A stretch of 64,000 nt of DNA from Dudresnaya verticillata (lineage: Eukaryota). Numbering within the stretch: position 1 is the stretch's first letter; each line of letters opens with the position of its first letter. Location: NCBI GenBank assembly GCA_977862235.1, contig OZ374564.1:1922001-1986000 (forward strand), in the 5' to 3' direction. The position numbers were made by a program, and so were the translations under genes. Positions 20,293-47,051 of this stretch are shown here, one piece after another. The notes under the pieces are model-generated. The model made no database searches and was not told where the DNA came from. It saw nothing but the letters and a program-made list of their open reading frames with translations.

Positions 20293-20474
20293 GCTCCGCA
20301 GCAGGCGGGTGACCAGCAGCCGGATAGCTAATTCAGTGAGACGTCCGCCGGAGCTATCGGCGCGTATGGATATTTTTTACAGCTCCTTGTCGCCGACAGA
20401 TTCGAGGAACTATTTTCTTAGCTTTCCCACTTCGGCGACTATGGGAGCTATGTAGCTAACGGAATGCCGCGAGT

Positions 20475-20574
20475 GTAATTGTCTATTGTCTTAGGTATTT
20501 CTATTTCCGGAAACACGGGAGCTATGTAGCTCCCGCGGAGGAGAAAAATAAAAAGCTAAGACAATAGATATTAC
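20475..20574. repeat. imperfect ~100-bp hairpin centred on GGGAGCTATGTAGCTCCC
   Basis: Arms TCTATTGTCTTAG (20482-20494) / CTAAGACAATAGA (20556-20568); inner palindrome 20517-20534. Confidence 0.8.
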
Positions 20575-20737: not shown

Positions 20738-20923
20738 AAGCCCATGATGGCATCTCACTACGCTGCGCGTTTGCAGCGTTTGCAGCAAGCCCAGGAGGGC
20801 ATCTCACTACGCTGCGGGTTTGCAGCGTTTGCAGCAAGCCCAGGATGGCATTTCACTACGCTGCGCGTTTGCAGCGTTTGAAGCAAGCCCAGGAGGGCAT
20901 CTCACTACACTGCGCGTTTGCAG
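20738..20923. repeat. 49-bp tandem repeat, ~3.8 copies
   Basis: Unit AAGCCCAGGAGGGCATCTCACTACGCTGCGCGTTTGCAGCGTTTGCAGC at 20738, 20787, 20836, 20885. Confidence 0.95.
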
Positions 20924-21686: not shown

Positions 21687-22067
21687 TTAATTGGAATCGG
21701 AAGAAGGATCTTCTGCGTTGCGTTCTTGACGTCCTCTGACGACACGAACGGAACTATGCAGTTCTTGAATCCGGATCCTGACGTTGCGAAGTGTTCTCAA
21801 CGTCCTTCTCCCGAAGTCATGCACAAGGTGTCTAACGAAATCAAATGCCCTTTGCACTTCGCTTTCTAGCTCCCGCACAGTGTTGCGAAGATGGTGGATT
21901 TCAGCACATATAAGTGCCAACTCTCGCTGCACTTCGGCCATTGTTGGATTGACAGGTAGCGGCATTGTTTTTGTACGAAGTCTGAAAAAGTCACATGGAA
22001 GCTTGAAACTGATTCTCAATGTCAAAGTCCAGGTCGGGCTCATCTTCTTCGTTGCGTTGTATCCCAA
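21687..22067 (-). CDS. small coiled-coil hypothetical protein
   Basis: Heptad pattern ELALICAEIHHLRNTVRELESEV; true start may be internal (MPLPVNP). Confidence 0.45.
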   Translation of the reverse strand: MGYNATKKMSPTWTLTLRISFKLPCDFFRLRTKTMPLPVNPTMAEVQRELALICAEIHHLRNTVRELESEVQRAFDFVRHLVHDFGRRTLRTLRNVRIRIQELHSSVRVVRGRQERNAEDPSSDSN

Positions 22068-22079
22068 CGCCCTTTCGAT

Positions 22080-22376
22080 TTACCGCAGCCTTCTTCTATC
22101 ACTTCGGGCAATATGAACGGTGTTTATCACTACTCTGGACAATCGGTCCATAACAGCGGTAACCACAGCCCTAATTTGTTGTCGAGCTCCTTCCACTGTC
22201 GTCCTTAATCCTTCCACCTCGCCTCGAAGAGCACGCACTTCGGACAGTAGGCGAGCAGGGTCGACATCGGAACTCCCGCTGCCTTGGTTGAGAGGAGCGT
22301 GCATGGATGCCATATTTCCTTCCAGCTGGCAATGTGCAGTGGACCGTCTACCGCTCTCGACTGGCAGGATATACAT
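22080..22376 (-). CDS. small coiled-coil hypothetical protein
   Basis: Heptad pattern LLSEVRALRGEVEGLRTTVEGARQQI. Confidence 0.45.
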   Translation of the reverse strand: MYILPVESGRRSTAHCQLEGNMASMHAPLNQGSGSSDVDPARLLSEVRALRGEVEGLRTTVEGARQQIRAVVTAVMDRLSRVVINTVHIARSDRRRLR

Positions 22377-22409
22377 CCGGTATTGCCCAAAAATAGATGG
22401 AGCAGACTT

Positions 22410-25295
22410 TCATGGCTCTCTATCACAACCCTCCATCATGTTAAGATCCCATGCGAAGAATGCGTTTAAGTCTCGCAGCAGGGCTGGCGGTTCCTCCGGA
22501 CCCTTAAAAGTGTACATATTCGGCCTCTCCGCGAACTCATCGCAAACTTTGAAGGCAAATACAGCCACGAGATTCTCTCCCTTCTTGCCGAGCTGCCGCA
22601 ACCCGTGCTGGTGTATTTCTGTCTTCAGTCCGTGGGCGTCGTTACCCGGTTACAGTACTGCCTTCCCAACCTTATCTGGACCACACAGCAGCCAAACGGC
22701 GTCACCACCTTTTAGTTGCGGTCGATCGCATGACAGCGGTTTCTCCCTAGGTTTTCCTGTACGTTTCCCAGCCTGTTGCTTACTTGGGGACATCACTAGA
22801 GTCTGTGATTCCCTTTCAGACTGATCAGTGCGTACCCTCTTTGTGTCCGGCTGTTTGTCTATCTGTTTTGCTGGACGCTTCTGTGCTTGGACCCCTGCAT
22901 CTTGAGACGACCCGTTCTGCTTCTCCTCTGCAATGCGGTGCAGGCGTGCACGAGCCAGTCTGTATGTTTCCGGGTTTCTTTCGACGAGGAAACACTCTCT
23001 GTCTGTCCGAACGCAGGCAATGACTGTAGTCATTGTCCCCACATGAGAGTCTAGGACTGAGCCACCTTCAGGGCAGAAGGTTGTGATTATCTCAGTAAGT
23101 GCATCAGGATTTTTCTCCTCCGTCAGAACTGGTGCCCTGCTAGTCCATGGCTTCATGAAATTGAAATTATCTCTGGGTATGGGAACAGAGGTTATCACAG
23201 CAAACCTTCGTCGCTCCTTACACGAGACGAATTGGTATAGGCTTGACAGGTCTGGAGAGAAAAAGTTCTTGGATATACCCTTGCGCCTTCCGAAGGCTGC
23301 TCCCTCCGCCCCATTCTGCAGTCCCTTCTTGCGACTTACCTGGACAGTAGTTGTGTCTTTGCAGAGCAAGAAAGGGTACTGTGGACTATCGAAATTCTTG
23401 TCGGTAAGTGCCTTTTGAAACAGCGGGAATTTCAAGAAGCTGCAGAACGGAAACACCCAACCACCCTCCTTCGCAACACGTCCACATAACTCGTAAAGGC
23501 GCTTGATGTATTCTTCACTGAAATGGTTTGCGTATGCAGTTCCAGCATTTGACATTCCCTTCGAGGTACGATACGGAGGGTCAGCAAGCACGAGGGCAAA
23601 TAGAGTACTGCATTCATTCCTGATTGATTGGTCATATTCCTCCCACTTCATCTGATATGTTCGTATCCTGAATTTGGAAGGCGGGTCCTTCTCCTCCACA
23701 TTAGAACCGGTATTCAGTCTCTCCGACTTGCGTGTTGAAGAAACAGAACGACTACCCGGTCCAATACACTCGTTAGTGATTTCATTGTTATCAGCTAATG
23801 TACGTGTGTCGTTGTCGTCTGTAGGATCCAGGACCGATTGCGCATTCTGCCTCTGCGTGTCAGTTACAGCCTCCTTGACGACTTCTGACTGCTTTTGGCC
23901 ACGAAGGCCCCCCTTCGAGTCATTTTCTTCCCCTCTTGAGGTTTTACATCAACTTCAGAACTCGTCTTATCAATCGCAGAAGCAAAAACTATGGGTTTCT
24001 CACTTTCTCCTATGTCTGGAGATGTATCTTTCCCAGAATCAGTTTCTGCTTGGAACTGGTGCTTGAATTTCTTTTCATTAAGTGGGGCTTGTTACGGGTA
24101 TTCCCTTTGATAAGCGGCTATCAATGGCTTGAGCACATCGGGGTCATTTCCGAAGTTTGCACCACCTCGTGGTCCAGCTTCGTGGAGTGAAGGAGTTTCT
24201 GACGAGTGACGTTCATAACTTCAGGCCAACTCTGGCTCTCGATAAGGCGTTCGAATTTACGTGCTTTCCTCATTGCTGCTTTCGCCCTTTCAAATTGTTC
24301 CAGAGTCTGAAAGCTGGTGACGGACCGGAAACTCTGAAGTTGATGTACTTCACGTAGTCGGTACAAAGTTGAAATCTGTATTTCTACGCCATTCTGCAGT
24401 TTGTTCCCATTCATGAAGGCGATTGCAGACTTCAGTGATGAAATGTGGATGAACGTTCTGTATACTCGGCAGTCAACCGTTCTCATTGCTCCGTCCTTGT
24501 CGAGTGTTGTCCCTTCCTTGTCTCCTGTCATCTTTGCAGCTAGATCTAGTCTCTCCTCATTTGCAATTTGTCCAATTGCGTGAATTACTCTCGTATCCAT
24601 CATACGCCTCCGCAATTTTTGGGACATTTGGTGATTTCGCAGTCTTGGCCTGTAACCTCTCCGCCTCCTCCCGCAGACCGCGGACCAGGTCAAAGCATGT
24701 AGTCTCGATAAAATATCCCTGGTCATGTTTCTCATTCCAATGTCTTGGCGGCTGCCAGAGCTCATGGACGTTGTGCCCACCCTTCAAAAGCGTTACAGGC
24801 CATGCGAAAGACTGCCAGACTGTTAGGAACTCTTCCATTAACTCCAAAATAACGCAATGTCTATGCAAGCCGTCAACAATGCCGTACCATTTCGAGCACT
24901 TGTTTGCCTTCTCCCAAGCCTCCTCCTCCGTGTACCCCTTCCCTTCCCCTTTCGTATTCTTGAAATACGCAACGATGTGACCTCGCAGAGACCCTGTCAT
25001 TTCGATGACAACTGGAGAGTCAGACCTGGCAACATACCCAATGGTCCCTTCACCGCCCTTCTTCTCTGATGATTGTAGATGAATGCGAGCTTTGAGCCGT
25101 TCCACTCCGGAGCGCACCACGGGTCTTATTGCCGTTAGTGGGAAGCACGCCCTGGGGCGCCCTGGGGTCAATTCTCATATTCACGGAACCCTCCATCACG
25201 TCAGAAAACAATGCCCTCCCCATACTTGCAGAAGAGCAATTTTGGTCCGCTTTAGACTGTGTAACAGCACCCTTTCCAGAACGTTTCTTGCCCAT
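22410..25295 (-). pseudogene. ParB/Srx-like + beta-class amino-DNA-methyltransferase + C-terminal SH3-like fusion (frameshifted)
   Basis: WYGIVDGLHRH (~24860-24874); LVLADPPY (DPPY 23571-23582); EEKNPDAL motif X; VLDSHVGTMTT motif I; FLVERNP motif II; frame continues past one stop to 22410. Motifs are seen directly; single-gene fusion is inferred. Confidence 0.8.
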
Positions 25296-26390
25296 CCAGC
25301 CAAACGTATAATTCAGCACTTTTGAACAAACGGTCGCCGTACGTCTTTCCAACTGGTTGCCGTAGGTGTTTCCAACTGGTTGCGTTAAGCTGATGAGCAC
25401 GGGATAAGTGTTGCGGTTTCCACGAAGAGCACTTCGGGTTTATAACAATATGTCCGTAGACAGGCCAGTGGTCACGGCAGTGAAAGACAGGATATATCAT
25501 GCCGGTTTCCAGCTCTTGCCTGGAAACGAGGTTTGTCCGCATGACTAACAGCCTCACGTACGGTTTTAACGTTGCCGGAAGGATAGTTAGAGTCCTGTAC
25601 TATTGGTGGCGCCCTGATCCATTCCGTGAGATTACATGAAGCTAGAGATCACTGCAGGGTTCTATTGGTCGTCGGTAAATATATCGACGTATTGTGCGGT
25701 AGGGGTGTTCGCCCTAAGTTCGTACTTTCTCAAAAAATATTTGGAAGTCAGTTCTAACCGTCCAACCGTACTGTGATTCCGATTCACAGCTGCCCTACTA
25801 GGGTATCTAAACGATGCTCAAGGCGGGTAAGAATTGGGCATACGAAATAGTTCCACAACGTGGAGGCGAAATTGGAAGTACGTGTGCCTGCGTAGTCACA
25901 CTCCCTTGGACTGGGGGTGATGTGGACGATTCGCAAACGTACAGTCATTCCGATTATACCGACATGAACGTGTTCCTCAGAAACGATAGGAATACCTTCG
26001 GGTTTTCGAATTGGCAAAAGATTACTGTCCGCCCTCGCAGAATCGTTTAACATTGACATTTCCTGAAACCTGCGCCTCCACCCTGCAGATATGGTCATCG
26101 TAAAACCCCTTCAGCACCGAAACAAACTGATGATCTCAATCTGCCATCGGATGCCACGACAAACGTAAGTATGCGTGTTACCCAATGATAAAGTAATATC
26201 AAGGTCAGGTAAATGATTAATACCATACATGAGACCATAATAGAGCCTGTACCAGAGTTTCCAAGTGATCCATGTAAATACGTTCCAGAATTCTCCACAG
26301 ATGAACATGTCCTCGTTCTAGCAATACAGCCCTATTCTGCGGAGGTTCAGACAGTCTGATCTGCAGTTCCACCTAATATCTTGGCGGTGT

Positions 26391-27248
26391 ATGTGGACTA
26401 TCCAGCAAGTTGAGGCTGCATTTTTGCAGGGTCCTCATACTGCTGCCGGTATAAGTACTTCGGTACAGTACGGTCATTCTGATTACCGGGATTTGAACGT
26501 GTCCAATCGAAGATATATCCGTATTTGCATACAGAGAATGACTAAGCCTCGTACACAGCCAAAACCATTAGCTACAAGTGCTACTTTCCGTTTAAAAGCA
26601 CGCAATCGTTTCATTTCACAGACTTCCTCGACGTTACTGAGGAACAGAAATACGGCTGTACACACAGAGAAGAGGATTTCTTGCCGAAGTGTAGTCATTC
26701 CTATTACTCTCGACATGCTCATTGACCTCCCGGTGTTGCCGGACGACATACAGTCAGGTTTCTGCGCATTTCATGCCTTCATGCGCTGTGAATTGAGGCT
26801 TCGATTGGCAGAGCAGCAGCGCCGCCTTAACGGTGACTCTTTGCCATTTTCGGAACGCATAATGCGATCCTTGGAGGTGAAGAATGAAGAAAGAGTCATG
26901 GAACAGGACCGTGCTCGAGAGTTTGAGGTCGTTATGGGTCAATACGACCATGACCAGAACATGCTCACAGTGGTATACCGTGGGGGTATGAAGAAGCTTG
27001 ATTACGTATCGGGGGATGTTTTCTCCGGATCTGAAGCTCATGAAATCGATGCCGTCTTGGTCGAAGCGAGTCGCCTGGGAAGCGACCCAGTACGGGAGCT
27101 GGAGCGAATGTGCCGCCTTCTCCTGACTTGGAATTTTGCCAAAACTAAGGCAGAAGGGACTGTGGCGGTAAAGGAGGTAAGGGTGGCCCGTGCGGAGCAT
27201 GACGTGCGCGTCATGTATAAGAAAGCTTCATCGTGCAAGTCTGTTTAA
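26391..27248 (+). CDS. hypothetical protein
   Basis: Open 285 codons; globular-looking C-terminal ~180 aa from MLIDLP; no recognised domain. Confidence 0.5.
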   Translation: MWTIQQVEAAFLQGPHTAAGISTSVQYGHSDYRDLNVSNRRYIRICIQRMTKPRTQPKPLATSATFRLKARNRFISQTSSTLLRNRNTAVHTEKRISCRSVVIPITLDMLIDLPVLPDDIQSGFCAFHAFMRCELRLRLAEQQRRLNGDSLPFSERIMRSLEVKNEERVMEQDRAREFEVVMGQYDHDQNMLTVVYRGGMKKLDYVSGDVFSGSEAHEIDAVLVEASRLGSDPVRELERMCRLLLTWNFAKTKAEGTVAVKEVRVARAEHDVRVMYKKASSCKSV

Positions 27249-27327: not shown

Positions 27328-27935
27328 CTATGTGTGCTTAAGGCCGTACCTTTCACCGTCGGTAATGTTAGAAACGAAAAGACTTCGACGGTTGTATTTT
27401 TGACGAGCGACGTAATACGAATTACGATCCTGGCGGCTTTTGAATTTTCCATATCCCCGCGAGAGTACTTCCAGCACAATAGCTGTGTCGGGATTTGACA
27501 TGAGCTTCTTTTCCTCTCTCTGCTGAATATCAACTAGGAAGGCCTTGAAACCTCCAACTCGTTCAGGTTTTCCGTAGTTCTTTACATTTGCCTGCCCATG
27601 AACGCGTTCCATAAATGTAGGAACACAGACCTGTCGAAGAGTCTGACTCCCAGCGCCTCAAGGCCGGTGAACCGCTTGCCTTCAGAGATGCAGTTGTCAA
27701 TTAATGCGAGTAAGTTGAACTCACCAATGCGGAGGACCATTTCTTTTTCGGTTTCCTCTGGTCTGCGCAGGGAATTGAAATCCAGACACGACAGATCCTG
27801 CCTCTTCCCAAGCCGTTCATCACTGACTTCTCGTGCAGGCTCCTTAGGTACGAAGTCAGACATCTTCCCCTTACGTACGAGGATGTGCATTCGGACTGCC
27901 ACAGGGGGTAGTACATCAGCGGGGGATTTCTGCAT
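27328..27935 (-). pseudogene. hypothetical protein split by one frameshift
   Basis: Overlapping ORFs 27582-27935 and 27328-27612, protein-like composition, convergent on the 26391 ORF. Confidence 0.45.
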
Positions 27936-29941: not shown

Positions 29942-30091
29942 CGCCATAACGTTCGAAGGAATGGTCCGTTAGCCAATCGGATTTCACCACCGTACTCAGG
30001 GGACGCTCTCCTTTCCAATTATATCATAAAATAGCTATTCGACTCGAGTCTGTTTTGAAAATCATATTCTGAAATCGCTCAAATGCGTGTT
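29942..30091 (+). repeat. 150-bp conserved element, copy 1
   Basis: Gapless manual alignment to 46902-47051, 87/150 identical. Confidence 0.85.
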
Positions 30092-30780: not shown

Positions 30781-31134
30781 CTAGTTTTGGTGAAGACTCT
30801 CTCGAATATTCTTCTGTACATTGACGGGGATACGCGAAGTGCTTGTTAAGCCACTAAATTCCACAAGCACCGAGCCAGCTGAAATCTTCCCGATCCATGG
30901 CGCTTGGTCATCTAAGATGTAAGGTTGATATCGCAGCCTATATGCGTCATGCCGTTCTTGCTCAATTGCTTCGTACCAACATATCTGCAGCTGCACAGAT
31001 TGTACCTTCCGGCCTCGTGTGCTCCGCAGCACCTCTTGAATCTTCGCAATGTAGAATGGGCATTCTGGAGCGCTGCCCTAATAGCGAACGCGAAATTATT
31101 GCGCGAGAATGGGACTTGTATGTCCTCCATTAAG
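30781..31134 (-). pseudogene. 3' end of Sola-type transposase gene, left of gypsy insertion
   Basis: Removing 31135-43509 joins ...DDNERDL-MEDIQVPF in frame; continues (one frameshift) PFYIAKI...ICWYE...PWIGKI...VLVEFSGLT. Confidence 0.7.
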
Positions 31135-32043
31135 TGTAGTGCCAGGGGGGGTCCCCCGTTTTCGCTTTCAAGCGTTGATATGCAGCGTCTACCGACGGAC
31201 GACCGCCAACGGCGCGCTCAACCCGTCCGCGGCGCAAACACGTCACCGACGCAAGCCGCTGGCAACTTGGGCCAGAACGGCTCGCTGGGCGTGCAGACCG
31301 CACGCCTGAACCCGGCCACTGTACGGCGCCACGCGTACGCGCATGGCGCAGTGGCGGGAACGTTCGCTGTAAGCGTGGCCCGAATCCGGATCCAATCCGG
31401 ATCCCATATCGGGATCCCATATCGGGATTAAGAGGTGTAAGGCACGCGCCTGTAAGCCTGGCGCATCCGCATCGCTGGCCCGAATCCGGACTGGATCGGG
31501 ATTGGTGCGGATCGAGATCGCTCGCGCCATGGGGCGCATGCGGCTGTAAGGAGGTAATCCACGTGTGAGTGTAAGGACTCGAGCGGGGAAGCTACGCGTG
31601 ATCTGTCAGGAGCGCGGCTGCATGACGGACGGGTCTGTCAGACGCGCCTCGGGACAACACGTGTCCCGAGTTCCCGCGTTACGCGTACATCCGCGTCGCC
31701 GCCGCTAGGTAATCCTGTACCTAGTTGATCCGTCTCAGACATCACAGTAAACCCCGGCAAGCCGGCCTTGGTCCAGACTTCCCCGTTCAGCACGCGCGTA
31801 CCCTACCGCTGCCTACGGCTAAGCGTCTACCTCCGTGCTTCCACGTCTCTACCCGTCCACGACGTGTTCCCTTTCTGTTCTCTTTTGTTCTTCTATTCCG
31901 CCTCGGGCGTTTACAGTCCGCCCAAGGCGAGCTAACCGCTCTACCGCCAGTTGCCCACGGCGAGGCCACCCATCGCCGCAGGCGTCGCTACCCACCGAGC
32001 CTCGAACTGCTCGGTGGTGCCCGTCATCGACGTTTGCACTACA
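31135..32043 (+). repeat. 5' LTR of element C (909 bp)
   Basis: About 15 substitutions versus 3' LTR by manual comparison. Confidence 0.97.
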
Positions 32044-32045
32044 AC

Positions 32046-32063
32046 TGGTCTCCCGACCTAGAA
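32046..32063 (+). promoter_or_regulatory. primer-binding site, tRNA-Tyr-like
   Basis: TGGTCTCCCGACCTAGAA 2 nt after LTR; first 10 nt complement ...CGGGAGACCA as recalled for yeast tRNA-Tyr. Confidence 0.75.
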
Positions 32064-32170
32064 GTGTGCTACGTCTCAACGAGTTACTCCGTCGTGCGAC
32101 GTCCGACCTTCCGTCTCTAGACTTCTGTCGCTAATCGTCCACGACGTTCAAGCAACTCTACGACTGCATT

Positions 32171-34728
32171 ATGGCCTCACGACCGCCGCCGTCGCGAGGC
32201 CCCAGTTCAAGAAGACCGTCATCGACGCCGGGGAGTGTCCCCGCGTCGGAGCGGTCGCTACAGCGGATGAACACGAGGTCTGGGCGCCTCGTGAGCCCCG
32301 AGATCGCATCGGCCTTCCCGACCGGTCCAGGCCACGACCACTCCCATATATCGCTCAACAGGGGAGAAGTACCTCCCCCGCCGGTACCCGTCGTTATCCG
32401 CACCACCGTTCCCAATGAATCGGCCCTCCGAACCTACCACTCGCACGTGGATTCCGCTGACAGGGTACAAGCCGAACAGCGACCCGTCGAGGACGGAGCC
32501 CAAGCCGACATCGTCGAGGAGTAACCGGAAGATCCGGTCCACCAACCAACCTTACCCGTCAACGACGACCAGGAACGCCCTGCGGGGCGTGACGTCGTAG
32601 ACGAATCACCAATCCCAAGGGGCTGCTGCCCCTCACCCCACGGCAGTGCCGAATGTTCACCGGCCAGGCCGTTAGCGCAACCGCGCAGCACGGGAGGTCC
32701 GCCGCAGGCGTCGACACCCGCGCACACACCGCCAATGGCGTCCCCAGCATCCGCCCGCGTTGGTAATCTCACGATACCTCACGAGCGGATTCGGGAAGTA
32801 TGCGTCGCCGAAGACGATAACTTACTCGCTCGATTCGCGGAGATGCTCGACGACAATGTCGGAGGTATTTTCAGCCGTCTGCAGACGTTGGAAGAAGATC
32901 GGGACGGTGCCCTTCAAGGACTCCGTTCCGACCTCGACCGTCTGATGACGAACCCCAACCACGGGGTAGATGCCCCGCAGCCAGCGGCATTGACGGTCCA
33001 CTCTCAGTCGGAACTGAGTTCACGCGAACGTTTTCAACGATTGGCAACCCGCTTAGAGCGACTGGAAACCGCCAAATGGCGCCAAGGGCCGCCGTCCGAT
33101 GACGATAGTTCCGAAGAAGACCGTCGACGACGCAAAGACCGCAAGAGACGGGGCAAGAAACGCCGCAAGTCGCGTCATGGACGGAAGAAGAACCGTCGCC
33201 CACGAGGGGACTCATCATCATCCTCTTCAGACATGTCTAGTGACGGCAGGTCAACCGACTCTTCGTCGTCAGACGATGACGACCACGTGGCTCACGGCAG
33301 TGCAATGCGACCCCGCGGAAAGCGATACAAGGGACTGAAGGAGATAAGCCCCTCCAATCCTCTCTTCGACCAGTTGCTATCGTACCGTACATACCGTCTC
33401 CAAGACGTGGGACAGAAGCGCTCTGGACGCGAAACCGGGAAGGTCAAAGACCATATCAAGCGACTCGAGTTAACTATGAAGGACGCCGCCTTCAACGGCA
33501 GCGACCCCGTCATGGTCCTCGAATTCTTAACGCGGTTCGCGGATGAAGCGGACACGCTAGACATGAGCGAAGCACAAGCGTTCGTCGCGCTGCCGTACTT
33601 CTTAAGGGGCACGGCAGCCACGCAATTCCGCTCCGTCAAATCGACGTCCTCTCGCCACCGCGGCGGCGCATCATCGTACCCGGAGGCGGTGCACTACCTA
33701 CTTCGCACATACGCCACGCCTTCGGCGATTCGAGACGCTGTCCTCCCCCTGCGGTCGACTAGTCAGAAGCAGGGCGAAGACGAGACGACTTACGGCATGA
33801 GACTCGCCGGCGCATGTATTCGTTGCGGTAACGTTTATCCCTAATGGGAAAAGATGACACTGTTCATCGATGGGTTAGACCCGATGATCAGGTCCTTAGT
33901 GGCCCGCTTCCGCGAAGAAACGCCGAGGGCGGAGTTATCTTTTGAACGTTTAGTCCACTTCGCGCAGGACGAAGGTGACGCGCAACGCGCAAGACACGGC
34001 AGGGCCGGCTCGACGTCAGTAAGACGGGATATATTGGCCCCGGCCCAAGCCGCTCGCGCATTGCGCCCCGCCATTGGCGACAACCGAACGGTTCTACGTC
34101 AACAGACGAGGGGCACGAAGCCTGCCGCAGGCGCTATGATAGCAGAGTCCTCCGTTGAGTTCCGTGATGTCACCCGTCATGCGGACGATATGGAAACACA
34201 CGCCGATGGCGATCTCTACTTGGCCGATGAAAAAGCATCAGTGCCAACGTCAGCGTTACCAACGGACAGCTACGTCGAAGACGGGGACACAGAGGCGATG
34301 GATCCTACACTCGCCTTTGGGCGTTCCGTCGTGCCCGCGCCACGCGTCCCGTACTCGGAGTATGCCCCCACGTCCATCGGGCGAGGCCAGGTTGGCAAGA
34401 CAGGGGTCCGCTCCGTCAAGACGCTCGCAGACAGTTGATCTGTCATCAGTGTTATGCCCGTGGCCACATCGCACCGGACTGCTTCCTCCGCATGAGCGAG
34501 TATATGAAAGCGATCGCCAACTACGAAGGCTTAACAGACGCCGAGAAGGCGGGGGTCCCCGCCGATGCGTACACTCGGTACAAGGAACGCGCTGCGCGCG
34601 AAGCAGCATGCCGTGCAGCACGACCACCGTCGCCACGAGGCGGACCTATGCCGCATGCAGCAGAACGTCATCCGGCGGTGGTCAGTCGCTACACAGTGCC
34701 GCTACAACCGCCGCAGGCGAAAAACTAA
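32171..34728 (+). pseudogene. gag: gag of element C (two stops, one frameshift)
   Basis: FNGSDP...FLTRF capsid-like region, CHQCYARGHIAPDC zinc knuckle; stops at 32522 and 33842. Confidence 0.85.
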
Positions 34729-37700
34729 TAAGGGTACCAACTCCTGACACTGGGGTGTCGCACCAAGCAGAGAGGCTTCCGCCTCGAGTGCTGACACGGA
34801 AGGAGGGCCCGAACGTAGTTAACAAACACGCCGATGGGCGGGTAGACTCGTCACAGACGTCCTTAAAGCGCCCCTGGCGTAGGTACCAGCCCCCACAAGC
34901 CCGGGGACAGTTGTTCGTAATGGCCAAAAGGAACTACAAAGTATACGCCGATCTAGGCGTAACTGTAGGTACCTTGGCACGTAAACTTACTGTCCTCGAC
35001 ACGGGGGCTGGTCCGAATTTCATCCGTATTGACGATATTCCGCTAGAAGCGCGATTACGGATCGTATCCAAGAGTCTCCCCGTCATATCAGACGCTAACC
35101 ACAAGGCGATTCAGACCCGGGGCACTATCGACTTAGTCGTACGTCTCGGACGAAGGGTCGTCAAGTTGGAGTTGATCGTCTGTGAACGGCTCGCTGCGCC
35201 GGTTATACTCGGTTGCGACTTTTGCGGCCGCTTTGTCGAAGCGATTTATCCGCGGAGTCGCGAGATTGAGCTGGACGACGGCACCCGTTTCCCTATAACG
35301 CGCCTCCCGCTGCGCCGGCCCCCGTCGTACCCCCCGTTGCCAACGGAACAAGAGTACGGCACGGCCGAAGGGCGAACGTCGCCCAAGATACGCGTTGCGG
35401 AACGAACGATCATCCCGCCGCAGGCGCAAAAGTGGATCTCGTTAACGACCGAGCGAGCAGGGGTCATTACCATCCAACCGTTTGGAACGTTATATGATCG
35501 GCAAGCTTTGGCCGTTACTAACGGAGTCGCTCAAGTAGAGCCGCTGAGAGTGTTCCGGATTCTCGTCGCAAACTTCTCCCCGCGCCCGCAAGCGCTCGTC
35601 AAAGGACAAGTCGTCTCTACCGCGTTGCCACATCCCACAGCAGTGTTCCCCAGTCACATAAGTCTGGCCGATGTCCTAGGTATCACCGAGGAGCAGGCAA
35701 CGGAGGAGGAAGCGAATCAAGATTTTCGTTTTCAAACGAAGGATGGGGTAACGGCGCAGCCGGATACATTCGCTAAGTCGATCGAAGCAACTGTAGCTAA
35801 ACCTCCGTCAGTGGACGAGTTGGACCTGAGCCATCTCTCAGCCGAACATCAAGGACGGCTGAAGGAGATGCTGCGCAGGTACTCGTCGATGTGGGACGGT
35901 TCATTAGGAGAAATCGCAACCACGGAGCACTATATTGACTTGCTCCCCGGCTCCAGGCCGATTTCATCCCCGCCCTACCGCGCTGGCCCAAATCAAAGGC
36001 AACTCGCTCAAGCGAAGGTGGATCGCATGTTGCGTCAGGGGGTTATCGAACCCGCACAATCGCCATGGGCGTCGCCGGTCGTCTTCGCTCCCAAGAAGGA
36101 CGGTACACTCCGCTTCTGCGTTGACTACCGTCGCTTGAACGCGGTAACGGTACGAGATACGTACCCTCTCCCGCGAATCGACGAATGTATTGACAGCCTA
36201 GGGGAAGCGAACGTCTTCACCACCCTAGACTGCAATAGTGGTTACTGGCAGGTGCTCATCAATCCGCGGGATCGCGACAAGACGGCGTTCACGTGCCATG
36301 CCGGATTGTTCCGCTACAAGCGTATGCCCTTCGGACTTACTAACGCACCGGCCACATTTCAACGGACCCTCGATATCCTGCTTGCTGGTTACAAGTGGCG
36401 CTCATGCCTCGTCTACCTTGACGATGTGATCATCTTCTCTAACGATATCGACAGGCACTTTCCTCATGTTGACGAGATCCTTTCGACCTTGCATCGGGCC
36501 GGGGTGACATTGAAGTTGACCAAGTGCGACTTCTTCACCCCGACCGTCAACTATTTAGGCCATGTGATACGTCCGGGACGATTGGAAGTAGACCGTACGG
36601 TCACAGCCGCGTTACGCGAAGCCAAGCATCCGCGGGACCAGAAGGAATTACGGAGCTTTCTCGGATTGTGCACCGTCTATAGACGGTTCGTATCGCGATA
36701 CGCACACGTCGCCGCTTCCCTCAACAAATTGTTGAGGAAAGAACAAGACTTCCGGTTACAACCGTTCACCGAGGAGCAAGCTCGGGCATTCAGCACGCTT
36801 GTCGAAGCGGTGACTCACCCGCCCATCTTGGCGTTGCCACAGCAAGGACTACCGTACTCCGTCGATTGTGACGCGAGCGAATACAAGTTGGCTGCGCACT
36901 CTTCCAAACGCAGCCTGACGGCGAACGGAAGCCGCTTGGTTTCTGGTCACGCTCGTTAACCGCTCCGGAGCGCAACTACTCGGTATCCGAAAAGGAATGC
37001 CTAGCGGTAGTCTGGTCGATCACGACGTTGAGACCGTACCTTCAGATGGAGTCCTTCGTAGTCCATACGGACCATTCGTCGTTGAGGTGGCTCATGGAAA
37101 TCAGCGACCCCTCAGGACGGTTAATGAGATGGCGCCTTTGCCTCTCTGAGTTCGACTTCGTCGTGAAGTATAAAAAGGGGTACCTGAATACTCAGGCAGA
37201 TGCCCTCTCACGTCTACAGACGAACGGCGAAACTGTCGAGCCAATCGACGATGATATCCCGTGTTACCACGGGAGCTGCGTCAAAGACGAGGACCACTCG
37301 TCAGAGGACGGCTACGCTCACGCAGAAAGCGGTACGTCAAACGCCAAGAGCGAAGTCGATTTCTCCGAACGAGACTTCGAGGAGTTTGACCAAATGTTGG
37401 TTACCAGCGCGCCACCGGCGGATGAAGTGCTCCTCCGCCAATTGACGCATGAAGAGTTGGTGCATGCTCAGGGCAGTGACCAGTACTGTTCCGAGATCCG
37501 GAAACGTCTAGAGGACGGAAACAACCTACCGTTTGCAACGGACGAACAGGGACTATTCGTTCGGACCGTCGAGGCCCGACCCCAAGTCGTTGTACCATCC
37601 GCGTTACGCGTTCGATTGCTCCACCTCCGGAATCATGCTAAATTAGCAGGACATCCCGGAGGGCGGAAGCTGTACCATACGCTTCGACGCGAGTATTATT

Positions 37701-39465
37701 GGCTGTCTATGTCGGTGGACTGTTACGCGACCGTCCGCAATTGCGTTACTTGCGCGAAGAACCGGGTACTGATGCGAAAGAACGTGAAGGAGATGAAACT
37801 GTTCCGAGCAACCGAGCCTCTCGAGTTTGTGTCCATCGACATACGCGGGGAGCTCATACGCACTAAGCGGGGGAATAAGTTCTTACTCGTCATCGTGGAC
37901 CGGTTCTCAAAGCTGGTCCGGACGGTTCCCTTACGTAAGATTACGGCATTGGAAATCGCTAAGGCGTTTGTTCGACACTGGGTGTTTGTGTATGGCCCAC
38001 CTAAGAAGCTGTTGTCCGAAAATGGACCGCAATTTGTAGCCAAGTTGTTCCAGGACGTCTGCCGCATCTTAGGGGTGGAGAATCTCATCACTATTAGGTA
38101 CCATCCGCAGTGTAACGGCCAGGTGGAACGATTCAATCGAACCATCCTCGCCTCCCTGCGTCACTACGTAGCAGACCACCCCAGGGACTGGGATTTGTTC
38201 ACCGATGCCCTGACGTTCGCGTACAATACGCAACTGCACTCGTCTACCCACCTCGCTCCATTCGAGTTGGTGCTATCTAAGCCCCCGCGGGCATTGTCGC
38301 TGGAAGCGGAGCCGTCGCTTGAAAGCGTGCCCACTGCCGGACAGTACTACACCAAATGGCGAACCTCGCTGTCCGCATTGATGGGAACCGCTAACGCGTC
38401 GACGCGAAAACGCAGGCGCGTTACAAACGGAACTTCGATACTCGTCTGAGGAAATCGAAGGAGAACATCGCTGTGGGAGACTTCGCATTCGTGCGGAAGG
38501 AATACTTCGCCCGCGGCGGGAGCACCGATCGCTCAGAGCGCAAGCACAATCTCGCACCTGTAGCGGATGGACCGTATCGAGTAACACACGTCGACGACGG
38601 GACAGTCACCGTCGACAAGGGACGTGGCGAACGCGAACGCTTATCCCGAGACCGCGTGGTATGGGCGCCAACCCCACCAGGGCACACCGCCCCCGCAACC
38701 GTGCAACCACCGGGACCACCTGACGTACCGGGACCCACGGCCCCCACGTCAACCGACGAAGGAGTAGGAACCCCAGACACGCCACAGGCGGACCCGGCAG
38801 GAGGCACAGGGACACCGCGCAGCACGAACGACTCGCAGGAGCAAATGAATGCAACGCCACGAAGCCGCGGGTTAGCAGAGCTCTCGCCCTTTGCCGCTAA
38901 CCCCGACGACGGTGTCTCGCAATCCGTCTCCGACGAGGAGGAGGGTCCCGGCATCCGTACGCGAATGGGACACGCAACCTCGGCTTCGCCGGCTACCAAG
39001 GTAGGTCCCGCTTCGAGCGCATCGACTGACGATAAGGAAGACCGCGCTAATGCGAAAGATGCCGCTAGAAGCGAGGAACCAGTACGCAAAAGCGACGAAC
39101 CACAAACCGCTACGCAAGCGCTCGGGGCACCGACCCAGCGCCTCAGGCGATCGACTCGTCGAGTACGATTTGCCGAACCGGTGCAGACGCCCATCACGCA
39201 AGGAAGTGAGCCGCCCAAGGCGTTAGAACGACAGGATCCCACGTCTACCGCTGCAAGCGAGAAGGAGTACGTTATCGAACGGGTTGAGTCGCACGCACAC
39301 GCGGAAGACGGTGAGATCCTCTACCGCGTCAAGTGGTTTGGATACCCCGCTTCAGCGAATACCTGGGAATCCGTGTCCAGTCTACCGCGATCGCACGTCG
39401 TGCGGTATCACCGTCCGAAGCACACGCGTCTACCGCCAAACATCGACGACGCGCAACTCGGATAG
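34719..39465 (+). pseudogene. pol: pol of element C (PR, RT, RNase H, IN, GPY, chromodomain), frameshifts near 36890 and 38400
   Basis: LDTGAGPNFI, YLDD, HHCC (HAKLAGHPG...CVTC), YHPQCNGQVERFN, DGPY, EYVIERV...YRVKWFGY...NTWE. Confidence 0.97.
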
Positions 39466-39831
39466 CCCTAGTCAGGGTGGGCGCTGGAAGCGGAACACAC
39501 GCCACATCCTCATACGGATTGACGCAGACGTGCACTCGTTACGGACGACTGGGGCTGTAATCAACCAGATCAAGGACGATTGGGTTGGCAACACGCGAAT
39601 AGGCAACCCTCGTCGTTGACTCGTCGTTGACAACGGTCAAGTTTATTCGGGCTTCACAAGCGAGGGTAACCCCCGTGCCCGCATGACCTTTCACTACGAC
39701 CTACGTCGTGAGACGCGACACTAACCGTCTATGACGTATGAATCCCTCGCTCGCCGCCTCACCACGGGGCAGGCAAAGCGACACCACACGCGTTCTCGCG
39801 TTTGCTAACCGTTCTTAACGATCCAACAACG

Positions 39832-42132
39832 CTACGGCTTTTTCGTCGCAGACGGCCCAAGTGGGGCATCATCCCCGACGCCATTGGCGGATTCTCTTAA
39901 CGCCTCTTCGTAGAGGTCGTCTTCCGTCACAGACGGTGCGCTCGCAGCAGGGGCAGGAACGGACCGCAAGGGACCCGCCACAACCACTGCTGTCGAAGTC
40001 GCGACATCCGCCGCTGGCGACGCACCTGTCTCACAATCCGCCTTAGGCGACGACTGTTCGTCAACCGCCATAGGCGCAACGTTAGAGTCATTATCCGCCT
40101 TAGGCGCTACACCAGGAAGCTCACTCGCCTTTGGCGGTGGAGCATCCTCAACCGCCTTGGGCGAAGTCGACGGCCCCGGCACCTCCGGTGACGGGACCGC
40201 ATTAACCGCCAAAGGCGTTGAACGATCAACATCCGTCACCGACGAAGAGGCCACTGGAGCCTGCGGAACCGCCGTAGGCGCTACCACCGCAGTCGCCTTT
40301 GGCGGACTTTTGTTAGCAACGTCAGTGGACGCAATAGCGGACGGACCCGCACAACCCGCCTTAGGCGACAAAGGCTTTTTCGCCACTCCGTCATTAGACG
40401 CCACACCTTCGTCGTTAGAAGGCGCAGTCGCAACGACGGTCGACGCCGGAACCGCAGCAACGCTGGGCTGCAGAGTAGCCAGAAGCGAGTGCCCGAGGGG
40501 CGTCGTGGAGGTTCCGCCCGACCCGTCAGTGACGACACCGGTGGCTCGCAGGAATGCGAGCACCGTGCGGCGCTGCTCCTCAATCCATTCGGGCACTGCG
40601 GGAGGGCGATTCGCACCGTCAGCGACGTTGGACAAGCCGCCTTGAGGCGTAACTGCAGAACTCGCCATGGGCGCAGCCATGATGGCATCACCATCACCGT
40701 CATTGACGGGAGCCGAGAGATCCAACGGCACAACCGACGGCAAGCCAACAGGCACCACAGCCGACGGTCCTACCGCCGCTGGCGAAATCGTCGCGGGGGC
40801 TGTCGCCCCCGCAGAAAGCTCAACCGCCATAGGCGTAACGACGTCTGTCCCAGACGAGTTAACCGGTCCGCTGTTAGCGTGGAACGCATCCTCCTCCGCC
40901 ATCAAGGCGCTCAAGTGGGGTGGGAAATCCCCCGCAAAGTCGCAATTCTTGCGCAACCCACGTGGGTGATTCGCTGGCGTGAAGCGGTCCGTACGACGAT
41001 GGCTCTCAGCGATGTTCTCCGTCGTAAGACGTTTGGTCCACGGGTTGTACCATACCCAATCGCCACAGGCGGAATGATTCCTACTCATCGCGTAACGCGG
41101 ACGGTTTGCCTTATGGCGCCGGTTTCCCGGCGGCACAGCTGGCGGGTCGTCCCAGTTGACGTTATCCGCCACATGGCGTAAATCCCAGAACTCTTGGCAG
41201 TTCCTGGCACCACCCAACACTTCGGTCAAATCAAGCCCACCAAGGAGGCTGACTACGCGTGGCGGCACATAATAGAGGCGGAAGGTGTCATACACCTCCC
41301 ACATCCATGCGTAAGTTACGTTGACGACCCACTCGGTGAAAAACACGATCCAACATCGGGAGTACGGATCCGTCCGCAACTCGGAGCCTATATACGTGAC
41401 ACACGGAGGCAATTCAGCCGCAAAACCCTCGCAGACCTCAAAGTCCCGCCACATCGGCGGGACGCGAATGAAGCAATGCGGCAACTTTTCCCGCTCAATG
41501 CGATCGACTTGCGTATCTTGATACGGTACAAAAACGCCTTTGCGGCGGCGCGTTTCGCATTCTCAACGGACGCAGCGCTCCCAATAGAAGGTGCCCGTCC
41601 TATGCAAGTATCGGAAATCCGCTTTCAAGCGTACACCAAGGAGGTTAGCCTCCTGAAGCACCCGCGGCTCAGCCGAAACAGCCACATGGCTTAACGACAA
41701 CGTCCCAAGACGGTCCCCATAACCAACCTCGCCATTTGTGCGGTACTGCCCTGCGTCAAATTCAAAGACGGTGGGCGTCAATACCGACCCCGGGTAGCGG
41801 GTAAACCGCCGATACACGTCAACGAGGAAACGCGCATGTGCATCTGCACGCGTCTGGCCGGCGGCAATACGCAGCCAACCCCTCGGAATGGCGCACCGAT
41901 GGCGCCACTCGTTCGTCCACACGACGGCCAGGGGCAACTCCCCTGGCAAAAATCCGTTCACAGCGTAATGGGTGATGAGATCCTCGTGTCGCAGGGCCTC
42001 CTGGTCGAACCAGGGGGCCCGCGAGAATAATCGCGCATCGTTGCGGGGCGTCCTCCCGACAAAGTCGAAGGGGGACGGATACACCGGCGCCGCCGAAGGC
42101 GCAGCCACTTGCAGGCCATTGAACTGCGCCAT
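39832..42132 (-). CDS. antisense accessory ORF of element C (767 codons, one in-frame TGA at 41563-41565)
   Basis: ORFs 41563-42132 and 39832-41484 share a frame; Trp/aromatic-rich N-terminal domain, Pro/Ala/Ser-rich tail; homologs in elements A and D. Confidence 0.8.
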
Positions 42133-42584
42133 TACGTCTGAGACGTTGAGTAATCACACGCCACTGGCGAACTTCACGCGATACGTCAACGACGGTCTCG
42201 GACTCCGAAGTCGAGTCAACTACGCCAAAGGCGGAAGCAAACAAGGCGCACGTCAACGACGTTGGATTGGACAACGCCGAAGGCGGACCTCAAAGAAACG
42301 CCCTAGGCGATAAGCGCACACACGCGTGCACAGGATACGACGTCAATGACGGGGTTTCACGCACGCCACTGGCGAAGTTAGTCAACAACACGTCTTCGAC
42401 GGGAGTTGTTGCTGCGCCAACGGCGGGTGGGCAACTGAACGTGCGTCTTTGACGGGGCTCAACTAACGCCAAGGGCGGGCAAACGCAGACGCGAAGACGC
42501 GGGTGACCGACACGATCGGCACTGGAAGAGACGCAGATGCGGGAAAGCAGGCAGGCTGAAGCAGGTTGACGTGTTCGCGTTTTC

Positions 42585-42595
42585 GGAGGGGGTCG
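42585..42595 (+). promoter_or_regulatory. polypurine tract of element C
   Basis: GGAGGGGGTCG directly before 3' LTR. Confidence 0.75.
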
Positions 42596-43504
42596 TGTAG
42601 TGCCAGGGGGGGTCCCCCGTTTTCGCTTTCAAGCGTTGATATGCAGCGTCTACCGACGGACGACCGCCAACAGCGCGCTCAACCCGTCCGCGGCGCAAAC
42701 ACGTCACCGACGCAAGCCGCTGGCCACTGGGGCCAGAACGGCTCGCTGGGCGTGCAGACGGCACGCCTGCACCCGGCCACTGTACGGCGCCACGCGTACG
42801 CGCATGGCGCAGTGGCGGGAACGTTCGCTGTAAGCGTGGCCCGAATCCGGATCCAATCCGGATCCCATATCGGGATCCCACATCGGGATTAAGGGGTGTA
42901 AGGCACGCGCCTGTAAGCCTGGCGCATCCGCATCGCTGGCCCGAGTCCGGACTGGATCGGGATTGGTGCGGATCGAGATCGCTCGCGCCATGGGGCGCAT
43001 GCGGCTGTAAGGAGGTAATCCACGTGTGAGTGTAAGGACTCGAGCGGGGAAGCTACGCGTGATCTGTCAGGAGCGCGGCTGCATGACGGACGGGTCTGTC
43101 AGACGCGCCTCGGGACAACACGTGTCCCGAGTTCCCGCGTTACGCGTACATCCGCGGCGCCGCCGCTAGGTAATCCTGTACCTAGTTGATCCGTCTCAGA
43201 CGTCACAGTAAACCCCGGCAAGCCGGCCTTGGTCCAGACTTCCCCGTTCAGCACGCGCGTACCCTACCGCTGCCTACGGCTAAGCGTCTACCTCCGTGCT
43301 TCCACGTCTCTACTCGTCCACGACGTGTTCCCTTTCTGTTCTCTTTTGTTCTTCTTTTCCGCCTCGGGCGTTTACAGTCCGCCCAAGGCGAGTTAACCGC
43401 TCTACCGCCAGTCGCTCACGGCGAGGCCACCCATCGCCGCAGGCGTCGCTACCCACCGAGCCTCGAACTGCTCGGTGGTGCCCGTCATCGACGTTTGCAC
43501 TACA
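42596..43504 (+). repeat. 3' LTR of element C (909 bp)
   Basis: Direct repeat of 31135-32043. Confidence 0.97.
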
Positions 43505-45747
43505 TTAAGTCTCTCTCGTTGTCGTCGGGAAGGAACTCTAGCTTGTGCTCTTCCAGCCCTTCCCTTGAGTATTTCCCATTGGTTTCCAAGATATCTTCTA
43601 GATTCCAGTGAAAGGGTTCCATCCTGTCCCGATAGATGTCGTCCCGCAACTTCCGAAGCTCTTCAATCTTTTTTATGTCCTTCATCCGCCCTTCTTCAGA
43701 ACGAATGAGGTCTCAGACTTCTTTCATATCCGGGGGAGCACGGGCCCGAGTTGGAGGGGTTTTGGACAACTCAGGGGGAACAAAATGGAACCCTTCTGCG
43801 CATTGTATGTGAGTAGGGGTTTCCATTCACCGTCGCACTGTATGCGAGCCTGGCACCCCGTCTTGAAACGAGCATTAACTCCTTCCGGCTCTCCTGCCAC
43901 CCTAAAGAACCAGAAGAACCTGTAATGTGAAAAGGTTTCAACCTTCCCTACACACTTAGAATCCTGACAAAGACCTGAGAAGTTTGGAATGTGCAGTATT
44001 CTTGCAACATGAGGCTCCGGCTGGTAGGATTTGCTCAGCTCCTCTATCATGTCATCCATAGTGATGGCATCTCTTGTCTCCAACCTCCTTGAGGTACAAC
44101 TGAAGGTCTGATCAATATAAGAATGAGCGTGTCCTATCGGCAGAAATGAGGCTTGCACCTCTTGAAAAACGCCCCACGCTACTAGACTTTCCAGGTAGGA
44201 GAAAATGAACCTGTTCTTGTTCTCCCTGGTACAGTTGTCCATCTGCAGCAGAAGCGTTGGTTGCATATTCCCACTTGCCTTCCTGAGGCTAAGCGATCGG
44301 TGTATTGCCTCTATTGCATGATTGGCACCGGATTCGTACTCCGCCGTCATGACGAAAAGGCACAACTTATTCTTAGGTCCGTGATCCAGAACGCCTATAC
44401 GTTTCACCTTGATTGCGTGACCTACTGTAACTTTCGTATTCACAACAACGTGCGGCAGTCCGAACGCAGACTGGTCTGCTCCGTCTACCACAATAGAACA
44501 ATGCTCTTCAGGAAACATTATAGCTTTTTCCGAAGTCTTCTTGTACTGCACACGCTCCTTCCAGACCATAGACAGATGCTGGCGCCTGCGCATCCTAAAC
44601 GGCCTCCCCGCCCGCTTGTCGGTCCCCGCCTTGGCAAGTCCATCGCGAATCTCCTCAAATTCTGTGCACTTCGTAAAGCGACGTACTTTTTGGACCTTAA
44701 TGTGGGACCATTGTGCCTTCCACGTAGCGTAAAAGTAGCTCGCGCTTGCAGGTGTCTCGCCACTATACAAAAGGCCCTGGTCTGTTGTGAATTGCTCGTA
44801 CACAGTCTTCCTGTCAAATGATGGCAGATGTATCTGTCCAGCATATGGTCTGCAGTAGCTTCAGCAATCCTCTCGGGGTACGAAACGATTTTGTCCCGTT
44901 GTTCAGAATTTGCGTCTCGTGGAGTGGCAGCGGAGAGGGACAAAGAGCCGCCAAACGTCTTGACAGACGTTTGCAAGTCCCGTGAAAACCCAAATGCTTT
45001 CTCTAAGAAATTGTAGCACACCAGAGCACCATTGAACCGGTAAAACCTGTCAGGCTGGAGCAGGCGGAATAGATAGTCCCTCCTTTCGTTCTTTTCCATC
45101 ATCAGAACACGACGAGCTTCGGCCTTGAGTTAAACCTGCTCACAGGCCTGGAAACATTTCTTTGTAGAACAAAACTTCTTGCGCTCCCAGTCCTCCGTGT
45201 CTATCCTCGCTAGTGCAGCCTTACGCCTTATCATCAAGGAATTCTCACCCTTCTCGGGCCTCTTACTAACAAGTGAATGATAACGATAAACTTGCTTCTT
45301 AACGGCACCAATTCCCCTCGTACCGTTTCCTATACGCTCCTCAGAACCAACACGATCAGCTGCTCCTCCACTCTCTGCGTTCTCACCTCGGTAATCCAGG
45401 TCAGAGAGTATTTCTGTTCCATCTGCCACCTCCTCGGCAGGTGCTGCCACTTCATCAGCAGATTCTGTCTGTGCGCCACCCCGCGTGACAAGGTCCATAT
45501 TGGATTCCGAACCCTCACCTTCTTCGCGACGGGCTTTCCCCTCACTTGCTGCCACCACCGCCACCTCCACTTCATCGTCCTTGTGATCCCCAGCTTCCTG
45601 TTCTGCTCCTGCTATCTGGTCTGCATCCTGGCCTGGCCCTGCTTCGTGGTCTGGCCCTAGTTATCCTAAGGTCCCTGGTTCCGCTTTGGCCATAACGTTG
45701 TCGTCTTCAGTGATCCCCTTCTTCTCGTTTTGAATAATGTTGTTCAT
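43505..45747 (-). pseudogene. Sola-type DDD transposase, 5' and catalytic part (frameshifted)
   Basis: FCSTKKC, LVCYNFLEKAFG, FTKCTE, IVVDGADQ, LQMDNCTRENKN, SFLPIGHAHSYIDQTFS; subgroup and start codon uncertain. Confidence 0.8.
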
Positions 45748-46901
45748 GTTGTTCTGCTCGGTTCTGTTCAGTGCAGATGCGGCGAAAAAGGGTATTGTGA
45801 ATCCAAGTACGGTCACGGTTGAGATTGTTAAAAAGGGTGTCATGGATATGACTAGAGAGTAAGAAAACGTTACCATCGCGATTCTTCTACAGAATCGCAG
45901 CGCAAAGATTGCCGCCGAAACGGTGATGTGAGAGACCCTGCCTCTGTTCATCAGTCGCTTGAAGAGCGTCCGGAAGGAGCTCCTTTCCCAGCGGGGCGCG
46001 AGGTGTAAATGGCATGTATTGTGTCCTTGTGAAGAATATGCAGATGTTACAGAAGAGAACTACTCGTTCCCAGCTCCTGCATACACGCTTGCAACAACCG
46101 CAGATGATATAGTCATTGGATACGTTAAGGCGGAACAGTCGTTACTAATTCGCAAGCTCACCTGTCGCAAATAGGACAAACTGGATGTACCTATTGTGTA
46201 GTCAAAGTAATAGTCACTTCGTTGTTTGCGAAGCACATAAATGGCTCTCACGCGGCAGCAAAGCACCAAACAGACACACGTTCGCGCAGTATGCGTGCCA
46301 CGCGCCCATCGAAGCGCGCATACCCCGTTCGCGGACGTGCACCTCGAAGCACACATACGCTACTCGCTAGTAGATACACATTTCCACTTGGGAATATGAA
46401 AGACTCCCATGGCCCTCGTTGTTTCCTAGTTAGCAACCACCTGAAGGGCCATACCGCGAGACGTCATTCAGCTCGTTGTATTCATAACTAAACTGCATAA
46501 TGGCGCTTTTGAAGAACATAGCATAACGTTGTATCCAAGGCGGCCGTGTTAGCATCGATGCTGGATCCAGCGTCTCACAAACCACAGGAAGAGTGTGTGA
46601 TGCAGCGAGTAGGAGCGCCGGATAGGAGCGGCTGGCAGGGGCGAGAGCAGTGGTGTGGCGAGTGCACTGTCGGCCCTGGGGGCGAGCTGGAGCGACAAGC
46701 AGATGCGCGGAAATCAGGTCGGAGAGCAGGAGCGGCGGTTAGGAGCGGCTGGCAGGGGCGAACGTAGTGGTGCGGCGATTGCGCTGGCGGTCCTGGGCAA
46801 GCGCAGGGCGAGGGAAAATCTAATTAAAATTGTTTTACAGAAATTCGGAAAAGTGTGAAACTTTCGGAAACGTTTGGGGGGTGTACAGACTGTGTTTAGT
46901 G

Positions 46902-47051
46902 CGCCGTAACTTCTGAACTAGTTACGCTACAGACAAACGGATTCCATCGTTGTTCCCAGCGCACGCTCCCGGTTCCACAGAGCGAAAGAAACCGGGGTAC
47001 AATTTGGTACTGTTTTGAAAAGTTGATTCTGAATATCTCGAAAGTAGTGTT
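46902..47051 (+). repeat. 150-bp conserved element, copy 2
   Basis: Gapless match to 29942-30091, same orientation. Confidence 0.85.

Follow-up and report, generated by a model that had tools for sequence, protein, structure and literature searches.

A broken fusion gene among transposons

The 64,000-nucleotide stretch of Dudresnaya verticillata DNA analysed here (the window) carries on its minus strand a gene of 2886 nt, or 962 codons, which runs from an ATG at 25295 to a final TGA at 22412-22410 (Table 1). A preliminary description had reported at this place a broken ParB-methyltransferase fusion without obvious introns, in which IVDGLHR, DPPY and methyltransferase motifs I and II follow each other in beta-class order on one strand over about 960 codons. 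All of these elements were located. IVDGLHR is encoded at 24880-24860, and DPPY lies N-terminal to motif I (DSHVGTMTT), as in the beta class, with the motif II glutamate found in LVERN. The gene is interrupted by frameshifts near 25157, 24600, 24157 and 23950 and by in-frame TAA stops at 24094-24092 and 22652-22650.

Five alignment pieces with identities of 29-64%, which together span 25223 to 22434, place an intact relative of 1003 amino acid residues (P0007) collinear with the window; the two best have E-values of 4e-85 and 4e-71. The frame pattern was identical against all eight close full-length relatives tested, and intact single-frame relatives of about 890-1050 residues, which span both halves of the fusion, align with the whole length of the gene. 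Since the pieces abut both in the DNA and in the query, the first three breaks are frameshifts rather than introns, in agreement with the intronless reading; the fourth falls in a poorly conserved linker and its placement is less sharp. Collinear intact relatives and the common frame pattern indicate a single broken gene, neither split by introns nor made up of two unrelated neighbours. This region is almost certainly a decayed copy of one fused gene for a ParB-fold domain and a beta-class methylase.

This copy cannot yield a full-length enzyme, since its reading frame is first shifted about 46 codons past the ATG. On a quick tree its end branch measures 1.0, compared with 0.17-0.4 for its clade mates, and it still keeps 50 of the 66 columns that are invariant in its seven nearest relatives. 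The long branch and the lost invariant columns are as expected of a pseudogene; the window copy is dead.

The window as a whole shows chromodomain Gypsy elements nested in one another, accompanied by a fragment of a two-pore-channel gene and a DDE_Tnp_4 open reading frame (ORF), which identifies its DNA as eukaryotic. The Gypsy element inserted in the transposase gene (Table 1) is young, near-intact and 12.4 kb long; its 3' antisense frames (39835-41562, 576 residues, and 41566-42153) have no Pfam match. A related, decayed Gypsy element is inverted at about 47100-54900 and has the antisense-frame region in common with it. The two-pore-channel-like fragment on the minus strand at 18979-20380, for which plant TPC1 was the best PDB match (E 4e-8), is apparently frameshifted and runs into Gypsy pol remnants. 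The DDE_Tnp_4 transposase ORF, presumably Harbinger-like, occupies 60580-61401 (E 2.9e-13), and two short isolated hairpins at 20482-20568 (26-bp arms, 85%) and 8288-8364 (32-bp perfect arms) are possibly miniature elements.

Table 1. Features of the fusion gene and its probable carrier in the window
Feature	Position	Strand	Remarks
Tandem array, 49-bp units, 4 copies (last partial)	20738..20923		Candidate binding-site array
ParB-fold / beta-class amino-methyltransferase fusion pseudogene	22410..25295	-	4 frameshifts, 2 internal stops
Conserved C-terminal domain, about 95 residues	22434..22720	-	Interrupted by TAA 22652-22650
Beta-class amino-methyltransferase domain	22960..23680	-	DPPY 23582-23571, motif I 23051-23025, motif II 22988-22974
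Conserved all-helical middle domain	24017..24595	-	Without family match
Predicted N-terminal ParB/sulfiredoxin-fold domain with IVDGLHR, then predicted helix-turn-helix-like part	24596..25223	-	From model of relative P0024
Two protein-like reading frames, possible further cargo	26322-27248; 27328-27950	+; -	Second frameshifted; between end B and fusion gene
Putative transposon end B	29942..30091	-	4.8 kb upstream of methylase gene; begins AACAC
Probable C-terminal part of DUF7869 transposase gene	30781..31129	-	Beyond Gypsy insertion; frame continues across insertion site
Ty3/Gypsy chromodomain retrotransposon inside DUF7869 transposase gene	31135..43504	+	909-bp LTRs, 15 differences; TTAAG target duplication
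Decayed DUF7869 transposase-like gene, main part	43505..45900	-	PF25273, E 3.7e-43; 5' limit approximate
Putative transposon end A	46902..47051	-	Upstream of transposase, beside older Gypsy LTR piece; begins AACAC

Family, domains and catalytic motifs

The first protein search returned two relatives; the cluster of one of them, which has a shorter representative, holds three single-frame proteins of 1003 residues among the 15 of its 19 members listed. These proteins (P0007, P0014 and P0015) are intact, near-identical copies. A profile search yielded 18 proteins and an exhaustive search (best 150 hits) 149 clusters at E<=1e-30. The 162 aligned rows comprise 55 that cover both halves, 34 with the N-terminal half only, 43 with the methylase only and 30 partial ones. 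Intact members are intronless single open frames of about 770-1190 residues, and none of the clusters looked up has an informative name. The earlier label “phage-like” holds only remotely and only for the methylase half, which matches phrog_67 (E 3e-20): among the 15 of 282 records listed, phage matches have 24-29% identity within the methylase domain and never reach the N-terminal domain, and the pattern-based, weak scans of IMG/VR and GTDB returned no close viral or prokaryotic relative.

Assignment of the N-terminal half to the ParB type is based on a relative's modelled fold, since no window piece had a Pfam ParB match and the pieces upstream of the methylase matched no Pfam family. A full-length AlphaFold model (6 rows) was unusable (pLDDT 38.5), and the fold searches were run with a model of P0024 (29-row alignment, pLDDT 77), which shares 45% and 48% identity with the two window pieces. 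The top five Foldseek matches were ParB/Noc proteins (probability 0.89-0.99; E 0.011-0.19, none below 0.001). In VIA the top eight rows were of the ParB/sulfiredoxin fold (Z 6.6-10.2; next row Z 5.0), including PadC (Z 10.2, rmsd 2.8 over 97) and Pnob8-like ParB-N (Z 8.8, rmsd 4.6 over 215). Fold matches include ParB, Noc, PadC, KorB, sulfiredoxin, SerK and SbnI, and this domain is thus predicted to adopt a ParB/sulfiredoxin fold; residues 252-315 of P0024 matched helix-turn-helix domains only at Z of about 4-4.6. The canonical ParB CTPase clamp of ParABS systems has a GxRRxxA arginine patch, hydrolyses CTP and works with a ParA partner. The signature of the present family is DGxHR, with one arginine; GxRRxxA is absent from the family motif, and no ParA-like match was found among the window ORFs scanned. 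Weak profile matches were obtained to DndB (3 of 9 close relatives, best 0.008; 1 of 52 full-length members, 5e-4) and to DGQHR (1 of 29, 0.027), and the first Atlas match was AIPR (0.90, low recognition). Given the DGxHR signature and the weak matches to the DndB/DGQHR branch, it would be unsafe to take a canonical CTP clamp for granted.

Fold matches of the middle domain were middling (VIA, Z up to 5). The C-terminal domain, which 19 of the 52 full-length relatives possess, had no family match in profile searches, which also gave no support to a possible likeness to the C-terminal domains of En/Spm TNP1. A cysteine-rich, zinc-finger-like tail takes its place in L003 (1665-3125), P0074 and P0079, as if terminal modules had been swapped. 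No SET or oxygenase domain was matched in 52 family proteins scanned or in nine more.

The methylase half is recognized directly, as proposed: ORF 22653-23948 matches the N6/N4-methyltransferase profile PF01555 (E 9.9e-11; 42.4 bits, curated cut-off 26.7), as do all nine close full-length relatives. Searched against the PDB, the profile has its best matches in two beta-class chains with DPPY, 8URK and 5HEK, in keeping with the earlier leaning from DPPY to 6mA; DpnA-labelled (E 8e-10), MT-A70 (1.5e-6 to 2e-4) and N4CMT chains (E 0.07) are also among the matches. Canonical motif I of beta-class amino-methyltransferases is FxGxG. Its second Gly is missing from the window gene and from all 52 full-length relatives and is therefore lost as a family trait, the family having its own motif, D-x-[YF]-[AG]-G-T-[LMF]-T. 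The motif is degenerate in the window, as noted before, but what looks peculiar to this copy is confined to two residues of DSHVG, H in place of F and V in the x position. The family resembles bacterial and phage beta-class methylases (8URK, the DpnA-labelled 5HEK, CcrM 6PBD, phrog_67) in the order of motif IV before motif I, in DPPY and in a remote match of the catalytic domain; it differs from them in its low identity, confined to that domain, and in its motif I, long helical middle domain and eukaryotic transposon context.

We compared the catalytic state of 52 members covering both halves, after dropping 3 of 55 with methylase coverage below 85%. [DNS]PP[YF] is present in 18 of them and missing from the other 34, whose frames are open; no SPPY was seen among the family motifs counted. 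On the quick tree, rooted with a single long-branched locus (L007, an unrelated bacterial methylase locus used as outgroup only), the motif IV label changes five times, and at least four of these changes are forced by well-supported branches. To judge from these sequences, DPP[YF] has been lost several times in the family. The window's clade (8 rows, support 96) has DPPY in every row at 37-71% pairwise identity, which speaks for selection on catalysis, and the DPPY rows sit nearest the single outgroup; catalysis therefore seems to be an ancestral property that part of the family has kept. It is not assured even in members with DPPY, since the second Gly of motif I is absent throughout. DGxHR occurs in 14 of the 18 canonical members and in 7 of the 34 others; a test of their joint loss gave no sign of co-evolution (four independent pairs, median p 0.5).

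The motif II acid is kept in 17 of the 18 canonical members and also in 33 of the 34 without motif IV, 23 of which retain D-x-[YF]-x-G. Together with the repeated motif IV losses and the missing Gly, this fits a non-catalytic DNA-binding helper whose methylase fold would serve to bind SAM or flip bases; such a helper would bridge the ends of its element or shield them from silencing and write no mark. Adenine methylase domains borne by DIRS1 elements have been described as inactive (PMC4738411). The argument has much force for two of every three family members and less for the window's clade, with its unbroken DPPY and its place among the rows nearest the outgroup, albeit a single and long-branched one. 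Overall, we regard such a helper as rather unlikely and predict from the sequences that the intact product methylates its own element.

A DUF7869 transposon as the likely carrier

In tandem with the fusion gene and on the same strand lies a decayed gene for a DUF7869 transposase-like protein, likely of the Sola1 type; no paper naming DUF7869 was found in the literature searched. With the Gypsy insertion discounted, 5.5 kb separate its end from the methylase gene, which lies downstream of it. It is 38% identical over 355 residues to an intact 823-residue ORF of locus L001, where a distant homologue of the fusion gene stands head-to-head with that ORF. Of the six family loci, L001 alone offers over 2 kb of upstream sequence, and it is the single locus behind the carrier link beyond the window. 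In the 43727-44860 part of the window transposase, GHAHSYIDQ stands for the GHTHEDVDQ of the intact L001 frame, as would be expected if the putative catalytic region had decayed.

Two 150-bp stretches are putative transposon ends, of which the second (B) stands between the transposase and the methylase gene. They are alike in direct orientation, with a score of 58 that was reached by none of 300 shuffles, and may well represent one and the same end in two sister elements that are nested or in tandem. Sola1 elements have terminal inverted repeats and 4-bp target duplications; the searches brought up neither an inverted partner nor a target duplication for end A or end B; 4 of 35 inverted pairs with distal regions scored slightly above 20 shuffles, and none of the four includes an end. 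As candidate for the far end, an AACAC at 20512 was discarded, since a matching duplication is absent and the match is only 6 bp. GC-rich stretches with short repeats and hairpins lie just inside the putative ends (28960-29900 and 46600-46800).

The 49-bp tandem array is 1.5 kb downstream of the methylase gene, and each of its units has a 20-bp imperfect palindrome with 7-bp arms and a 6-bp spacer. We infer a link between this array and the methylase gene, as candidate binding sites; no 10-mer is shared between the palindrome array and end A, end B or the L001 spacer. The two protein-like frames upstream of the gene had no Pfam or PHROGs match, the plus-strand ORF had no PDB match, and neither was found in L001-L007. 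Directly after the methylase stop, two further minus-strand frames (21687-22409; 109 and 130 residues) with weak sub-threshold Pfam matches are also possible cargo.

We consider it likely that the fusion gene is an accessory gene of a large DUF7869 DNA transposon. This retains the earlier view of an element-borne gene inside transposon DNA, but places the gene outside the Gypsy elements that surround it. Another carrier (Plavaka, Mutator, a similar giant element or the remnant of an endogenous virus) or a recent bacterial or phage insertion would be compatible with the unpaired ends and with the movement of red-algal accessory genes between transposon superfamilies (10.1101/2025.02.11.637652). 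Against it stand the independent DUF7869 linkage in L001, the resemblance of end B to the end upstream of the transposase, the absence of a match to any other transposase or viral gene in the ORFs scanned between 20300 and 31130 and, weakly, the lack of close relatives in the IMG/VR and GTDB pattern scans. We judge it unlikely; this estimate concerns the carrier only, on an axis of its own, and fits either mechanism.

Known systems and a possible self-marking role

The architecture is already known in seaweeds, where proteins of this kind have been described as accessory genes of an algal transposon. Sola1-1_Ec32 of Ectocarpus, with ends AACCG, encodes a 1104-residue accessory protein with ParB-like and N4C/N6A methyltransferase domains, head-to-head with its transposase, and such ParB-methylase proteins were proposed there, without test, as a new class (PMC12477816). 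By architecture and context, and from that description alone, the window family groups with this protein: it has the same domain order, about 1000 residues, an association with a large DNA transposon and, in L001, the head-to-head layout, and the end-like sequences of the window, which begin AACAC, resemble the AACCG ends. The window gene differs in being dead and in tandem with the transposase, no 282-bp inverted repeat was found, and the extra C-terminal domain of its clade has no mention in the passage of PMC12477816 on this element. What is new here, at the level of sequence, is a large intronless family with a DPPY-retaining clade, repeated loss of DPP[YF] and family-wide loss of the second motif I Gly. 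No biochemical test of a fused ParB-methylase transposon protein was found in the literature searched.

In Bostrychia as well as further red algae, Plavaka elements carry the accessory genes PAG2 (PF01555 and SET) and PAG3 (ParB-like and a putative 2OG oxygenase). Here too both domain types reside on giant algal DNA transposons, and tandem inverted-repeat arrays adjoin the ParB gene; PAG2 and PAG3 are, however, separate genes, whereas the present family fuses ParB and methylase, lacks SET and oxygenase matches and accompanies a DUF7869 transposase. For the Bostrychia genes an analogy with the anti-silencing proteins of VANDAL elements, the only transposons named as modifying their own DNA, has been proposed (10.1101/2025.02.11.637652). 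Phage loci with ParB, terminase and methylase genes have been described as origins of other eukaryotic methylases, and the ParB-HTH-fused Dam family of chlorophytes belongs to another methylase group, group 2 (PMC4738411). N4CMT of bdelloids, like the present family, is a beta-class amino-methylase of bacterial derivation in a eukaryote. N4CMT belongs to the host, combines SPPY with a chromodomain and was shown to write 4mC (PMC8885841, PMC10406627); the window family, known from sequence alone, has DPPY and a ParB-fold domain and is element-borne.

The best overall explanation, which we hold to be probable, is that the window gene is a decayed accessory gene of a DUF7869 transposon whose intact product would bind and methylate its own element. 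In the proposed mechanism, the N-terminal half would recognize palindromic arrays in its own element, with the 49-bp array as a candidate; the array-bound ParB-type domain would tether a SAM-dependent, base-flipping methylase; a methyl mark, most likely on adenine N6, would be laid in cis; and this mark may maintain the element's expression or its ability to transpose, much as has been proposed on the model of the VANDAL anti-silencing proteins. Self-marking by 6mA in this manner is a plausible scenario, somewhat short of probable. The same enzyme might make another product, namely 4mC on DNA (as bdelloid N4CMT does) or methylated RNA or single-stranded transposition intermediates, given that PF01555 spans N4C and N6A enzymes and that N4CMT, DpnA-labelled and MT-A70 chains are among the PDB matches, but the motif is DPPY and not SPPY, a contrast drawn in PMC8885841 and PMC10406627, no SPPY was counted in the family and the best PDB matches are DPPY enzymes, so that we find this improbable. 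For the history of the family we offer only a tentative proposal that builds on self-marking: an old family of transposon helpers would write 6mA on its own element, and several lineages would later have given up catalysis, with the fold preserved to read or shield.

Hardly any transposons are documented to modify their own DNA, VANDAL being the only ones named in 10.1101/2025.02.11.637652. The dead window copy adds little alone; it points to dozens of intact family members. Among them, the intact 1003-residue proteins P0007, P0014 and P0015 make the self-marking reading directly testable, the DPPY-retaining clade suits an assay, and lineages with natural loss of catalysis serve as controls. 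If active, the family would supply algal genomes with 6mA of transposon making, the mark being written by the parasite rather than the host.
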